Shown: positions 1,837 to 6,758 of the stretch, piece after piece
Layout: every line of letters starts with the position of its first letter
Position numbering within the stretch: position 1 is the stretch's first letter
DNA from: a virus
Lineage: Duplodnaviria; Heunggongvirae; Uroviricota; Caudoviricetes
Strand: one strand, 5' to 3'
DNA: 64,000 bases
Virus record (IMG/VR): IMGVR_UViG_2713896908_000007
Program-made: the position numbers and the translations under genes
The notes under the pieces: model-generated
Seen by the model: only the letters and a program-made list of their open reading frames with translations
The model's database searches: none
Told to the model about the DNA's origin: nothing

Positions 1837-2835
1837 TTATCCGTTACCGCGCGACGGTTTCTGCGTGATAAACGTATCAAGCATCTTTTCCGCAATTGCC
1901 GACCAGGTGTGACACTGGACCTTTTCAGCATTTTTCACGCGATCAATGCGAGCAATAACCTCATCCCAATCAATCCGCGACTTGATAACCATATGGTTCA
2001 CCAAAGCCAGGCGATCCGGCGGAAGACAATCGGGCGGCGTTAATATCAACGCCCCACACATTGCCGCCTCAAGAACAGTTAATCCAAGGCTTTCGGGATG
2101 CGTAACGATAAAAACGTCACTCTTACGCAATTCAGCTGCAAATTCGGTTGCTGGTACCGGCGTCCGTCTGTATGGGGTTACCGATATATTCCCTGGATCA
2201 ATGGTAATCAATCCGTCATCGGTCAACGTTCTGGCCTCATACGGAACGGTCAGACGCTGAAGGTTCATAAGGATACTTAAGGAGTGATCAAAACCACTAA
2301 CATCAAATGCAGCGTGGTCTACAAAAATACGCAGAACATCGTCTGTTTTGGTTTCCAGATGGAACAGCTCCTGATTCGCTGCCCATCCAACATGTTTGTT
2401 AAAACGATTATGGCGCTCTAACCTGCCGGGATTATCCAGGTACCGCCAGGTATCATCGCGGACAGTAAAAGTAATATCGACTGGTGCCGAATCCAGCATA
2501 GAACCGTCGTATACCTGGGCTACCCATCCAGTAAATCGACGACGCAGTTGCACGCCTATTTCCCTGGGCACCGTAGTAAAATACCTCAATCCTGGTGCCA
2601 AAATGGCCTTCGCAGAACATGCGGTCGCAGCAGTCAACACAGCTTCAACATAATCCTCCGGGCTTTCGACGCCGGGGGAATATGGACGATGGTATTGCAA
2701 TGTTACCCCAGCCTCACTAAAGGCGCAGGCCAGGTTATAAGCCCACATTTCCGTATATGTTTTCACATCACTGATGGCTTCAAATTTTCGCCCAATGATC
2801 AGGATGTTCATCGGCTTTTCCTCATTCCATTGCAT
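1837..2835 (-). CDS. glycosyltransferase-like protein (GT-B C-terminal half), at the P1 dbn position
   Basis: C-terminal THPESLGLTVLEAAMCGALIL resembles the GT-B E-x7-E region; stop/start overlap with ban. Confidence 0.45.
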   Translation of the reverse strand: MQWNEEKPMNILIIGRKFEAISDVKTYTEMWAYNLACAFSEAGVTLQYHRPYSPGVESPEDYVEAVLTAATACSAKAILAPGLRYFTTVPREIGVQLRRRFTGWVAQVYDGSMLDSAPVDITFTVRDDTWRYLDNPGRLERHNRFNKHVGWAANQELFHLETKTDDVLRIFVDHAAFDVSGFDHSLSILMNLQRLTVPYEARTLTDDGLITIDPGNISVTPYRRTPVPATEFAAELRKSDVFIVTHPESLGLTVLEAAMCGALILTPPDCLPPDRLALVNHMVIKSRIDWDEVIARIDRVKNAEKVQCHTWSAIAEKMLDTFITQKPSRGNG

Positions 2836-4199
2836 TAATAATCCTCTTGCCAGTCAGCACCAGCATAGTTATCAAATCGTGAATACTGGCCGTTAAAAGC
2901 CAATCTCACCGTGCCAATCGGGCCATTTCGTTGCTTACCAATAATCACCTCGGCAATGCCCTTCATTTCGCTATCCGGGTGATAAACCTCGTCGCGATAC
3001 AGAAACATGATCAGGTCTGCGTCCTGTTCAATTGCTCCAGATTCACGCAAATCTGAATTTACCGGTCGTTTGTCCGCACGCTGTTCAAGCGAGCGATTAA
3101 GTTGTGACAATGCCACCACCGGCACCTGTAATTCCTTCGCCAACGCCTTAAGTGAGCGAGAAATCTCGGCAATTTCCAGCGTTCGGTTGTCTTGCAGCTC
3201 GGGGACGCGCATAAGTTGCAGGTAGTCGATCATGATCATGCTCAATCCGCCATTTTCTTTATAAACACGACGAGCACGGGAACGAAGCTCTGTAGGTGTC
3301 AGGGCGCTTGAGTCATCAATAAAAATATTCTGCTTGTCCAACAGAATCCCCATTGCACCAGAAACACGCGCCCAATCCTCGTCGTTAAGTTGCCCCGTTC
3401 TAATACGAGTCTGATCAACACGTGCAAGAGAGGCCAGTGAGCGCATCATCAGCTGGTGGCTTGGCATCTCAAGGCTAAAAACCAATACAGGCTTATCGCT
3501 ACGGACTGCGGCATTTTCGACAAGATTCATCGCAAACGTAGTCTTTCCCATAGATGGGCGGGCGGCGACAATAGTGAGATCGGATGGCTGAAGCCCTGCC
3601 GTCTTCTTATTGAGATCGGTAAATCCGGTATCAAGCCCCGTTACACCATCATGCGGTCGCTGAAACAACTCTTCTATGCGAGATACCGTTGCATCGAGAA
3701 TGCTGGCGATATCTTTTGGACCACTACCGCTCTTTTGTCGTTTTTCAGCTATTTCAAAAACGCGGCGCTCGGCCATATCCAGCAATTCATTGCTGCTCCG
3801 GCCATCCTGCGCATATCCAGCTTCGGCTATTTCATTTGCGACGGAAATCATTTCACGAACAACCGCACGTTCACGAACGATATCCGCATAAGCACAAATA
3901 TTTGCCGCGCTGGGCGTGTTCTTTGACATCTCCGCAAGGTACGCAAAACCACCGGCGCGTTCTAATTTACCGTTCTGTTCAAGTGCTTCAGCAAGTGTTA
4001 TCAAATCAATCGGTTTGCCATGACTTAATAACCTCTCCATCTCACTGAAAATTTCACGATGAGCACTGGTATAAAAATCATCAGCAACTATACGATCTGC
4101 AACTTCATCCCAGCGGCAGTTATCAAGCATTAAGCCACCAAGCACAGCTTGTTCTGCACTAAGGGAATTTGGCATGGATTCAAGAGGGGATGCAGACAT
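2835..4199 (-). CDS. ban: replicative DNA helicase, DnaB family (P1 Ban-like)
   Basis: N-terminal AEQAVLGGLMLDN and Walker A GKTTFAMNL; RecA-like core; likely start is the ATG two codons inside the track ORF, preceded by GGAG. Confidence 0.85.
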   Translation of the reverse strand: MSASPLESMPNSLSAEQAVLGGLMLDNCRWDEVADRIVADDFYTSAHREIFSEMERLLSHGKPIDLITLAEALEQNGKLERAGGFAYLAEMSKNTPSAANICAYADIVRERAVVREMISVANEIAEAGYAQDGRSSNELLDMAERRVFEIAEKRQKSGSGPKDIASILDATVSRIEELFQRPHDGVTGLDTGFTDLNKKTAGLQPSDLTIVAARPSMGKTTFAMNLVENAAVRSDKPVLVFSLEMPSHQLMMRSLASLARVDQTRIRTGQLNDEDWARVSGAMGILLDKQNIFIDDSSALTPTELRSRARRVYKENGGLSMIMIDYLQLMRVPELQDNRTLEIAEISRSLKALAKELQVPVVALSQLNRSLEQRADKRPVNSDLRESGAIEQDADLIMFLYRDEVYHPDSEMKGIAEVIIGKQRNGPIGTVRLAFNGQYSRFDNYAGADWQEDY

Positions 4200-4484
4200 T
4201 AACACTCCACCCTGGTGTGCTGAATGTCAGATATAATCGGCATACTCAAATCACTCCTAACGATATGAGTCATCACCAGAAAATCAGGATTAATGCGCCG
4301 GACTCTTCCCGGCTGTCACACCGAATCGCCAGGATGGTGAGTCCCTGTATCCGCTATCCCTCCAACGGTGACTTGCACATTCCGGCTACCTGGTTTGTTG
4401 CCTGAGCTAGGGGAAAAGGTAACCCCTTTAACGTCACCAGACCGCTAACGACGCATGTGCCAGACGCCGTGTTACAACCAAATG

Positions 4485-4560
4485 TGGTGACCCCTACCGG
4501 ACTTGAACCGGTGACCGTGCGATTATGAGTCGCCAGCTCTAACCACTGAGCTAAAGGGCC
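4485..4560 (-). tRNA. tRNA with anticodon CAU (Ile2-lysidine type or Met)
   Basis: 76-nt cloverleaf GGCCCTT...CTCATAA...GGTTCAAGTCC...CCA; 7-bp acceptor stem; T-loop consensus; encoded CCA. Confidence 0.85.
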
Positions 4561-4563
4561 GGA

Positions 4564-4671
4564 TTACTGTTTCCTAAGTGCTTCAATGGCGCTAACAACG
4601 CCGCCTACAACTATGGCAACAATGATAATGAGAACAATTGGATACTTGTCAGCAAAATCCCAGAAGCCCAT
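4564..4671 (-). CDS. 35-aa hydrophobic single-pass membrane peptide
   Basis: MGFWDFADKYPIVLIIIVAIVVGGVVSAIEALRKQ; start overlaps the upstream stop (TGATG); below the ORF-track size cutoff. Confidence 0.35.
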   Translation of the reverse strand: MGFWDFADKYPIVLIIIVAIVVGGVVSAIEALRKQ

Positions 4672-4835
4672 CACTGATCCTTCGAAGCTGTTTTAAATAT
4701 CGGCCATACCAATGTTACAGCCACTGCCACCAACGCCCCGTCCGATAAAACTGACAGGATTGTGCTGGTGAAATCCACCAGCACGGACAGCAAGAGAAAA
4801 CCAATGGCGATTGCGATACGTGCCTTGCTTGCCAT
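4671..4835 (-). CDS. 54-aa hydrophobic membrane peptide
   Basis: MASKARIAIAIGFLLLSVLVDFTSTILSVLSDGALVAVAVTLVWPIFKTASKDQ; ATG overlaps the TerB-like stop (TAATG). Confidence 0.35.
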   Translation of the reverse strand: MASKARIAIAIGFLLLSVLVDFTSTILSVLSDGALVAVAVTLVWPIFKTASKDQ

Positions 4836-5269
4836 TACAGATAATCTTCCACACGAAGACCTAAACGACGGCCTACTTCTTCCAGTACTTTGTGTTCTGC
4901 TGGCTCGATTTCACCGTCCGCTTCTGCAATCGTCAGCATGTTAACGAATACTTCTTCCGCTTCTTTTGGGTCGTTTTTGATATCTTCAATTTCGCGAAGG
5001 ATATTCATGCGACCAACACGGAAGCCAGCTTCCAGTTGCTCGGTAAAGCGGGTAATTGTTGCGGTAATTTCGTTACCAAAATGACTAAGACGCGGATTAG
5101 AGCGGATAAGCTGATCAAGTTTCGCTGTTTCTTCTTTTTTGATTTCACCATCAGCGGCAGACACCAACAAACAGCCACCGATAATGGCCTCCATCAGATC
5201 GCGATTCTCAACTTTTTTCAGCTCTACTTTTGCAGAAGCGACTTTCTTGCCGAACAATTTACCGAACAT
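4835..5269 (-). CDS. TerB-like (tellurite-resistance domain) protein
   Basis: 144 aa with paired acidic DGE motifs (AADGEIKKEE, AEADGEIEPAEH) typical of the TerB fold; first gene of a coupled operon. Confidence 0.55.
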   Translation of the reverse strand: MFGKLFGKKVASAKVELKKVENRDLMEAIIGGCLLVSAADGEIKKEETAKLDQLIRSNPRLSHFGNEITATITRFTEQLEAGFRVGRMNILREIEDIKNDPKEAEEVFVNMLTIAEADGEIEPAEHKVLEEVGRRLGLRVEDYL

Positions 5270-5531
5270 TGGTTATCCCTCAATAAAAGTGACATATTTA
5301 TTAGATTGCGGTGCCGGGTGCCTCCCGGTGACGTTAACCAGTTAACAATTAACGCCGGAATGTTTAATCATCAAGGAGGATTGTTTTAACTGTTCCGCGT
5401 GCGCTTAGCCGAATTCACCGCAATGGTAAGAGCACTTGGCTGGCTGGGCGGCGATGACGCCTGTACGCATTTGGTGATCCGGTTCTGCTTCCGGCATTCG
5501 CTTAATTAGCCAAATACTCTTAACGTTGCGC

Positions 5532-5618
5532 TGGTGGAGAGTAATGGAATCGAACCATCATCGCTTGCGCAATGGGACGGTTTTCAAGACCGCTTGAGCG
5601 CCATACTCCCTACTCTCC
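5532..5618 (-). tRNA. tRNA-Ser (anticodon UGA), type II with long variable arm
   Basis: 87 nt; anticodon loop CTTGAAA; variable arm ATTGC-GCAA-GCGAT hairpin; T-loop TTCGATT; encoded CCA. Confidence 0.7.
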
Positions 5619-5859: not shown

Positions 5860-5992
5860 TGGTGCCGGTTAACGGATTCGAACCGCTGACCTCTGGCCTA
5901 ACATCGAATCGTTGTCATTTGACCAGCAAGGCTGTCTACCGAAGTAGAAACGATGCTTTGGCTCTCGTGCTCTCCCACTGAGCTAAACCGGC
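5860..5992 (-). tRNA. atypical 133-nt tRNA-like gene: tRNA 5' and 3' portions separated by about 57 nt of inserted sequence
   Basis: 5' GCCGGTT-TA-GCTC-AGTGGGA-GAGC (acceptor and D arm); 3' AGCGG-TTCGAAT-CCGTT-AACCGGC-A-CCA; acceptor halves pair; no canonical anticodon arm found. Confidence 0.35.
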
Positions 5993-5994
5993 AT

Positions 5995-6070
5995 TGGCGA
6001 TGGTGGGTGGATTCGAACCACCGACCAGTTAGTTAACAGCCAACTGCTCTAACCGCTGAGCTACACCATC
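5995..6070 (-). tRNA. tRNA-Asn (anticodon GUU)
   Basis: 76-nt cloverleaf GATGGTG...CTGTTAA...GGTTCGAATCC...CACCATC-G-CCA. Confidence 0.85.
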
Positions 6071-6730: not shown

Positions 6731-6758
6731 ATTACACTAATAAATTTATTAGAGCAAT
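6731..6758. promoter_or_regulatory. pair of overlapping, inverted P1 C1-repressor-type operators
   Basis: AAATTTATTAGAGCAAT (17/17 to the remembered consensus ATTGCTCTAATAAATTT, reverse orientation) overlapping ATTACACTAATAAATTT (15/17). Confidence 0.6.

Follow-up and report, generated by a model that had tools for sequence, protein, structure and literature searches.

The TerB domain is known from the terZABCDE operon, which also encodes the membrane protein TerC. TerB-like domains occur too in DjlA and in YebE/DUF533, where fused membrane anchors hold them at the inner membrane. A third setting is provided by the phage-plasmids P1 and P7. The annotated record of P1 gives the gene order tciA, tciB, tciC, trnI, ban, dbn, and that of P7 gives terB, upf69.4 ('TciB-like'), upf69.6, tRNA-Ile, ban. 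A P1 lysogen does not express the ban operon unless the operator carries a mutation. According to the GenBank feature notes, the annotation of the P1 tci genes is homology-based, and the label 'tellurite/colicin resistance/cell-division' that they carry is a guess from homology.

Little else has been written about these genes. The tciABC genes constitute one of eight variable regions and are missing in around half of one P1 subgroup (PMC9603915). A CRISPRi study of plaque formation by P1vir, covering the whole genome, found tciA, tciB, tciC, trnI and ban to be non-essential (PMC10695390), and a preprint places tci genes among those that are mis-regulated in an hfq host. Elsewhere in the literature searched, tciB and tciC occur in gene lists only and no functional study was found, whilst DUF3927, the Pfam family to which TciB belongs, occurs in one figure legend.

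Structure and identity of the locus

The window analysed here is the whole of a 64,000 nt viral sequence (IMG/VR record IMGVR_UViG_2713896908_000007) and is a P1/P7-like phage-plasmid. A 1.2 kb segment around the locus of interest is 100% identical to Escherichia albertii plasmid pEA16-1_1 and matches 592 plasmid records, nearly all of them from Escherichia or Salmonella and nearly all non-mobilizable. When compared with a phage collection, the locus is 96.5% identical to P7, and 92.7% identical to P1 over tciB-tciC-trnI.

The genes of the locus lie on the minus strand. A TerB-family gene (4835..5269; terB in P7, with P1 tciA as its functional counterpart) encodes a cytoplasmic protein of 144 aa. 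It is followed by tciB (4671..4835; P7 upf69.4), which encodes a hydrophobic DUF3927 protein of 54 aa, by tciC (4564..4671; P7 upf69.6), which encodes a single-pass hydrophobic peptide of 35 aa, and by trnI (4485..4560), an ileX-like tRNA-Ile2 gene with anticodon CAT that was found with both ARAGORN and Rfam. Further downstream in the same operon lies ban (2835..4199), which encodes a DnaB-like replicative helicase and is annotated as dnaB by PGAP in the identical plasmid and as ban in P1 and P7. Read on the reverse strand, the terB/tciB junction (CTGTAATGGCA) has the form CTG-TAATG-GCA, in which TAA and ATG share one base, and the tciB/tciC junction (CAGTGATGGGC) has the form CAG-TGATG-GGC, in which TGA and ATG share one base. 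The 3′ end of tciC reads CAGTAA-TCC-GGCCC, leaving 3 nt between the stop codon and the first base of trnI; this spacer is also 3 nt in P1/P7-type alleles and is 6 or 9 nt in two others. The list of open reading frames gives the tciC frame as 4564..4674 (minus strand), 36 aa from a GTG, which becomes 35 aa when read from the ATG at 4671.

The original prediction was of two ORFs, of 54 and 35 codons, chained behind a TerB-like gene through TAATG and TGATG and ending 3 nt before a tRNA-Ile, and all of these details are confirmed, on the minus strand. The tRNA itself was labelled Met(CAT) by ARAGORN. However, a chromosomal E. coli tRNA-Ile (PGAP annotation) matches it from end to end with 88% identity and the P1 copy is annotated as ileX-like, and because of these two observations the label tRNA-Ile is correct.

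Both mini-ORFs have counterparts in the reference genomes. P1 tciB and P7 upf69.4 have the same length as the window gene, overlap the TerB gene in the same way and belong to the same ban operon; no substantive difference was found. At the protein level the window TciB is 100% identical to that of P7 and 83% identical to P1 TciB. The first ten or so codons of P1 tciB differ from the window, with a recombination boundary at about position 4804. Upstream of this, the TerB protein is 99% identical to P7 TerB and 31% identical to P1 TciA. P1 tciC and P7 upf69.6 resemble the window gene in their length of 35 codons, in the overlap with the tciB stop codon and in the 3 nt spacer to trnI, and are 74% identical to it. 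The window carries a minority tciC allele (Y10, I15, I16, V19, A20, V25, V26, S27, A28), present in 3 of 47 copies and 94% identical to the SJ46-type allele. In pEA16-1_1, PGAP annotates the TerB gene and, at the position of tciB, a 'DUF3927 family protein' (WP_000146941.1), with no feature at tciC. We identify the mini-ORFs as tciB and tciC, already named in the P1/P7 reference genomes and not new; in the three-gene cassette terB/tciA-tciB-tciC they are cistrons two and three. As a discovery this carries little weight, both ORFs having names and one a Pfam family.

The TerB partner gene

Assignment of the upstream gene to the TerB family is supported by matches to Pfam TerB (PF05099; 55.6 bits, gathering threshold 24.4), PHROG 632 (E = 2.5e-63) and the KP-TerB structure (PDB 2JXU; E = 3.7e-7). 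The protein is without a signal sequence. Conserved TerB N-termini (MFGKLFGKK, MLGILKKK, MGFLGFGKK) look like an amphipathic basic segment. The terB start codon is preceded, 7 nt upstream, by a GAGG Shine-Dalgarno sequence (-6.1 kcal/mol).

Whilst the window gene shares its domain with the TerB of the terZABCDE operon, it differs in its surroundings. There, TerB is encoded alongside the membrane protein TerC; here it stands without another ter gene and is partnered by a DUF3927 peptide. No terC, terD, terE or terZ was found within about 3 kb; the gene is surrounded instead by tRNAs, tciB, tciC, trnI, ban and dam, and membership of the ter tellurite-resistance operon is ruled out. The protein is also weakly similar to DjlA (NCBIfam, E = 7e-6) and DUF533 (Pfam, E = 2e-4). 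In DjlA and YebE/DUF533 the anchor is part of the same polypeptide, whereas in the window it would have to come from separate, translationally coupled peptides. A search with NCBIfam yielded nothing useful for TciB or TciC.

tciB is a coding gene coupled to terB

TciB matches Pfam DUF3927 (PF13064) with E = 1.1e-25 and 89.8 bits against a gathering threshold of 25, residues 4-54 aligning to positions 3-53 of the 53-position profile, and matches PHROG 1470 ('TciB-like') with E = 2e-23. It has the characters by which the family is described, being a stand-alone hydrophobic protein of 50-60 aa with an invariant [VI]DFT[SG]...S...D motif. Conservation was assessed in 84 sequences, comprising 80 IMG/VR loci around TerB homologues, P1, P7 and pEA16-1_1 (83 fetched), and the window. 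An intact small ORF containing VDFTS directly follows TerB in 82 of the 84, representing 28 protein and 34 nucleotide alleles that encode 54-60 aa. Pairwise dN/dS (Nei-Gojobori) among the 34 nucleotide alleles ranges from 0.13 to 0.40, with a median of 0.28 over 444 pairs, and dS ranges from 0.4 to saturation. In an alignment of 25 diverse members, D21, F22, T23, S28, D32, V36 and P45 are invariant.

The overlap with the TerB stop codon is equally persistent. It is found in 96 of 97 fetched DUF3927 copies, as TAATG (57), TGATG (35) or GTGA (4); the remaining copy is degraded and lacks a TerB gene. The Shine-Dalgarno sequence of tciB itself is weak (-3.3 kcal/mol, compared with -6.1 for terB) and lies 11 nt away, which fits a dependence on ribosomes terminating at terB. 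A frame-disrupted tciB beside an intact TerB gene was seen in a single case (P0277). Taken together, these comparative data indicate that tciB is clearly coding.

The arrangement as a whole is no chance feature, as the same overlaps and open frames recur in the 80 IMG/VR loci and in other genomes. The accompanying argument, that the tight coupling implies translation, is well supported for the 54-codon ORF by the DUF3927 match, the dN/dS values and the retention of the overlap in spite of saturation at synonymous sites; for the 35-codon ORF its support is moderate.

tciC is probably a real gene

The position of tciC between tciB and trnI is the same in the window as in P1 and P7. TciC matches PHROG 23152 over its whole length (residues 1-35 of 35, E = 1.2e-25) and belongs to no Pfam family. 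A tblastn search returned it from P1-like plasmids and phages only, and in the fetched loci tciC was confined to P1/D6-like elements. The frame is open in 47 of 47 copies, which comprise 9 nucleotide and 6 protein alleles, one of the latter shorter by a single codon. The start codon is preceded at 5 nt by a conserved Shine-Dalgarno sequence, AAGGA (-5.5 kcal/mol).

A divergent version of the gene is carried by D6. The D6-type TciC (MDFWTYIDKNPGWSLLFLLVIVYGVEQVAKNLRRRK) has 36 aa and is only 31% identical to that of the window. Nevertheless, it retains the overlap with the tciB stop codon, an N-terminal FW..DK.P, the hydrophobic core that forms the transmembrane segment and a basic C-terminus. 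It is likewise preceded by AGGA at a similar distance, within a range of 5-7 nt, even though the overlapping C-terminus of tciB differs. Moreover, in two distant metagenomic loci a DUF3927 gene is followed by a coupled hydrophobic ORF of 37-40 codons.

On the other hand, tciB may be the only real gene of the two, the 35-codon frame being a non-functional spacer ORF that is kept open by chance and by the constraints of tRNA-precursor processing. The window and the common P1/P7 allele differ by 12 substitutions, 9 of them replacements, giving a dN/dS of about 0.9-1.0, which by itself is no evidence of constraint. The frame was not called by PGAP in any plasmid examined and the D6 version is not annotated in the D6 record. 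It is also absent from every TerB-DUF3927 pair outside the P1/D6-like elements, and by our own estimate a 35-codon open frame arises by chance about one time in five. Set against this, none of the 9 nucleotide alleles in the 47 loci is broken, the ribosome-binding motif keeps its place although the coding sequence over which it lies has changed, the D6-type allele preserves overlap, length, motif, core and basic tail at 31% identity, and comparable third mini-ORFs follow DUF3927 genes in distant loci. In addition, each of the nine replacements stays within the I/V/A/G/S group or exchanges Y and H. In a simulation with matched transitions and transversions (n = 100,000), only 1.2% of replicates kept the frame open and the transmembrane segment apolar with equally conservative replacements (p of about 0.012). 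A spurious frame is, on this evidence, unlikely, though it still merits some weight. We consider it quite likely that tciC is translated, and these features point to its probably being a real gene. If so, it is one that automatic annotation with PGAP has dropped in hundreds of plasmids.

The cassette lies in the C1-controlled ban operon

A closer inspection of the upstream region revealed a bivalent C1 operator, Op(ban)/Op72, at 6731..6758 in the 3′ end of the dam/dmt gene, overlapping the promoter region of the ban operon. It consists of a perfect 17-mer, ATTGCTCTAATAAATTT, at 6742-6758 on the minus strand and an overlapping copy with 2 mismatches at 6731-6747 on the plus strand. Matches to the C1 operator number 7 in the window, compared with 0.35 expected. 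The position 6731-6758 corresponds to Op(ban) in P7 and to Oban in P1, and both annotations put the tci genes under Op(ban).

Downstream of the operator on one strand follow tRNA-Asn(GTT) (5995..6070, minus strand; ARAGORN, and Rfam tRNA with 71.7 bits), tRNA-Ser(TGA) (5532..5618, minus strand; ARAGORN), an STnc100-like leader, terB-tciB-tciC, trnI and ban. The cassette, lying downstream of the C1 operator and on the same strand, is thus part of the repressor-controlled ban operon. This placement suggests expression upon derepression, that is in lytic growth, and not a resistance trait of the lysogen. Promoter and terminator scans of the locus gave results at chance level.

The place occupied by the cassette in the ban operon is a variable cargo slot. 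In RCS47 the position of tciABC, immediately upstream of the same tRNA gene, is taken by a gene for a 275-aa lipoprotein.

The leader of the TerB gene (5307..5422, minus strand) is a partial match to STnc100 (RF02076), covering model positions 31-147 of 206 with 50.3 bits against a gathering threshold of 47. As to STnc100 being a general part of the module, no match at the gathering threshold was found in 15 related loci. The same kind of tRNA-Ser is annotated in D6. Examined for structured RNA, the conserved stretch of 190 nt that separates trnI from ban gave a fold z-score of 0.17 and no Rfam match.

TerB-DUF3927 pairs in other temperate phages

The pairing of TerB with DUF3927 extends well beyond P1-like elements. 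Pairs overlapping by 1 or 4 nt were found in lambdoid prophages of Klebsiella, where the gene for the Q antiterminator lies on one side and holin genes on the other, in a Yersinia prophage near kil-type genes, and in 186/P2-like prophages of Serratia, whose early operon has the order Cox-Fil-TerB-DUF3927-RepB. Further pairs are present in Rosenbergiella, Buttiauxella and Erwinia, and in GC-rich metagenome contigs. The two genes thus make up an obligately coupled unit that moves among temperate phages of at least three distinct architectures, always in operons that fire on induction. Identification of the peptides as a phage holin from their neighbourhood was rejected, the flanks in the window being TerB and a tRNA with no endolysin, and only the Klebsiella lambdoid pair lying upstream of holins.

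A profile search with DUF3927 returned 760 clusters at 90% identity; among the matches listed, every protein stands alone, measures 50-60 aa and comes from Enterobacterales. When 1.84 billion representatives were searched exhaustively with an HMM, only 167 members were recovered, nearly all of 45-75 aa, and no genuine TerB-DUF3927 fusion was found among these 167 family representatives. Long DUF3927 matches that were considered as fusions (P0134, P0198, P0249, P0309 and P0277) turned out to be frameshift or chimeric calls.

TerB can also be found with a different neighbour. In Pseudomonas prophages a TerB that is 67-76% identical is followed, with a 4 nt overlap, by an unrelated 67-aa protein with an N-terminal membrane anchor, and in one phage-like lineage TerB has no small membrane neighbour at all. 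Phage TerB with a coupled small membrane protein is thus a recurrent theme that is not universal. The expectation that a TerB-like protein would have small membrane partners is upheld in the sense of a gene arrangement that recurs in several phage types, including the unrelated partner of the Pseudomonas prophages.

Predicted membrane topology of TciB and TciC

TciB is basic at its N-terminus (K4, R6) and again at its C-terminus, with about 41 hydrophobic residues in between and a GRAVY score of 1.22. In the AlphaFold2 prediction, made from 25 aligned sequences, residues 2 to 52 form a single unbroken helix with a mean pLDDT of 90.5. Calculated at 100 degrees per residue, D21, S28, D32 and V36 fall on one face of this helix, and D21, T23, S28 and D32 make up an invariant polar stripe. 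The second hydrophobic stretch of TciB has 14 residues only. With this predicted helix, TciB may form either a single span or a hairpin with a kink at the invariant D32-G/A33.

In either allele type, TciC starts acidic, ends basic and has an apolar core of 18 residues. Its GRAVY score is around 1.2 and its best 19-residue window reaches 2.97. With the positive-inside rule, this charge pattern means that TciC is probably oriented with its N-terminus out and its C-terminus in.

Proposed function and alternatives

On balance we favour the view that tciB and tciC are accessory genes of P1/P7-type phage-plasmids whose products act as membrane partners of the cytoplasmic TerB during lytic development, and we think this rather probable. 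Ribosomes that finish TerB would reinitiate on tciB, and given the weak Shine-Dalgarno sequence of the latter, we infer that TerB and TciB are made together. TciB, joined by TciC in P1-like elements, would then serve as an inner-membrane partner that holds or couples the soluble, probably metal-binding TerB at the cytoplasmic face. In effect, the separate peptides would be a trans-acting counterpart of the anchors that are fused, in cis, in DjlA and YebE/DUF533. Expression of such a complex would follow the release from C1 repression early in the lytic cycle; its target would be the envelope or the ion homeostasis of the infected cell, and for plaque formation in the laboratory it is dispensable. 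Two observations bear on how tight the putative interaction could be. The same TciB accompanies two types of TerB that are only 31% identical (P1 versus P7 and the window), which argues against a highly specific interface, and the lack of TerB-DUF3927 fusions weighs against a tight, specific complex.

The original prediction went on to suggest a membrane-stress or exclusion module, which is a guess based on homology; the suggestion is a reasonable one, but it repeats what the homology-derived annotation of these genes already says. An alternative has TciB and TciC as membrane-damaging effectors, such as a type I toxin, a holin or a viroporin-like peptide, with TerB as their regulator or antidote, the whole serving as a toxin/immunity, lysis-timing or abortive-infection/exclusion device. 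The high hydrophobicity of both peptides would suit such a role, as would the invariant intramembrane Asp, Ser and Thr residues that line one face of the TciB helix, as would be expected of an oligomeric ion path. The Klebsiella prophage pair, moreover, sits directly upstream of holin genes, and the ter operon has been associated with phage inhibition and with pore-forming colicin resistance (PMC7371120; PMC9603915). However, the genes follow one another as translationally coupled members of an operon, which appears unlike the arrangement of type I toxin loci, and promoter and antisense-promoter signals are at chance: a consensus scan, which is weak evidence, gave no antisense promoter-like site in 4564-4835 and a promoter-like count equal to the shuffle expectation (5 found, 3.7 expected). 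Nor do lysis genes adjoin the cassette in P1-like or P2-like elements, and its knock-down was without effect on plaque formation (PMC10695390). A search against the PADLOC defence models, including the TerB-containing Shango and Bunzi, gave no match for TciB or TciC and a single sub-significant one for the TerB protein (PDC-S48, E = 0.009). We therefore regard an effector role as distinctly unlikely. More doubtful again, and in our estimation very improbable, is that the cassette confers tellurite or colicin resistance in the prophage state, as a lysogenic-conversion trait of the kind that the name Tci implies. The homology-based annotation speaks for it and the TerB fold is confirmed, but TerB occurs alone, with terC, terD, terE and terZ all missing nearby, and a perfect C1 operator precedes the cassette. 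In other phages, the pair is placed in early or late lytic operons, and no resistance phenotype was found in the literature searched.

Returning to TciB and TciC as membrane partners of TerB in lytic development, a broader and far more speculative extension would make TerB-DUF3927, with a lineage-specific third peptide such as TciC, a conserved membrane module that temperate phages of unrelated types (P1-like, lambdoid, P2/186-like) keep in lytic operons under repressor control. It might act as a TerB-gated path for ions or metals, or stabilise the membrane and so protect the infected cell against depolarising abortive infection, colicins or superinfection, and in P1-like elements an RNase P cut at trnI would set the 3′ end of the tciC mRNA. 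We think it improbable that all of this holds. If it were true, the amount of peptide made would be tied to tRNA maturation through RNase P cleavage at trnI, 3 nt past the stop codon of tciC. The annotation gap around these genes is in any case of long standing, and the cassette is present, on P1-like phage-plasmids, in about 5% of complete E. coli genomes.

Gene content of the slot upstream of tRNA-Ile and of TerB loci elsewhere

In phage RCS47, a gene for a 275-aa lipoprotein (comparison locus L101, 4386-5213) is found where the window has terB-tciB-tciC (4564-5269). Both slots lie immediately upstream of the same tRNA-Ile, and homology between RCS47 and the window ends a few bases upstream of this tRNA, at approximately position 4569. 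The slot thus serves as a cargo-exchange point of the ban operon.

The gene that follows terB also differs between elements. TerB genes of Pseudomonas prophages, 67-76% identical to that of the window, are succeeded by a gene for a 67-aa protein (L082, 2941-3144; L105, 2935-3138), whose ORF shares 4 nt with the TerB stop at both loci. This protein has a membrane anchor at its N-terminus and two Cys residues, with no Pfam family assigned to it. It is unrelated to DUF3927, yet it occupies the DUF3927 position after TerB.

A tciC-like ORF of 36-37 codons, very divergent (31% identical), is present in D6-like elements (L042, 3096-3209; L102, phage D6), and is without annotation in the D6 reference genome. 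In two GC-rich metagenome contigs (L103 and L104), the DUF3927 homologue is longer, at 92-97 aa, with a coiled-coil-like tail, and is followed by a translationally coupled third hydrophobic mini-ORF of 37-40 codons (L103, 411-533; L104, 331-444). No relationship of these third mini-ORFs to TciC could be detected. The only frame-disrupting variant encountered in the analysis was P0277, a 175-aa TerB protein from a 92,985-bp E. coli contig, the 3′ end of which reads through across tciB in another frame. This read-through indicates either a frameshift or a sequencing error, and would uncouple tciB.

Non-coding and tRNA-like elements of the ban operon

Within the 5′ leader of terB, the Rfam sRNA family STnc100 is matched at 5307-5422 (minus strand; model positions 31-147 of 206) with 50.3 bits, barely over the gathering score of 47. 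None of 15 related TerB loci contains a match at the gathering threshold, so STnc100 does not belong to the TerB module in general.

Directly 3′ of tRNA-Asn, at the site occupied by tRNA-Thr in P1 and P7, lies a tRNA-like element of ~131 nt (5862-5992, minus strand). Acceptor, D and T arms are discernible (GCCGGTT-TA-GCTCAGTGGGAGAGC ... CAGCGGTTCGAATCCGTTAACCGGCACCA), with an insert of ~65 nt replacing the anticodon arm. The element was not called as a tRNA by Rfam or by ARAGORN, with or without introns allowed; the sole Rfam match there is a weak one to YrlA at 5941-6052 (21 bits vs a gathering score of 69).

Between trnI and ban is a non-coding stretch (4294-4483). Folding gave no evidence of a stable RNA structure (z = 0.17) and Rfam returned no match within it. 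In Stx2-converting phages, an intergenic segment downstream of the cI repressor gene, itself without annotation, shares ~83% identity with this stretch.
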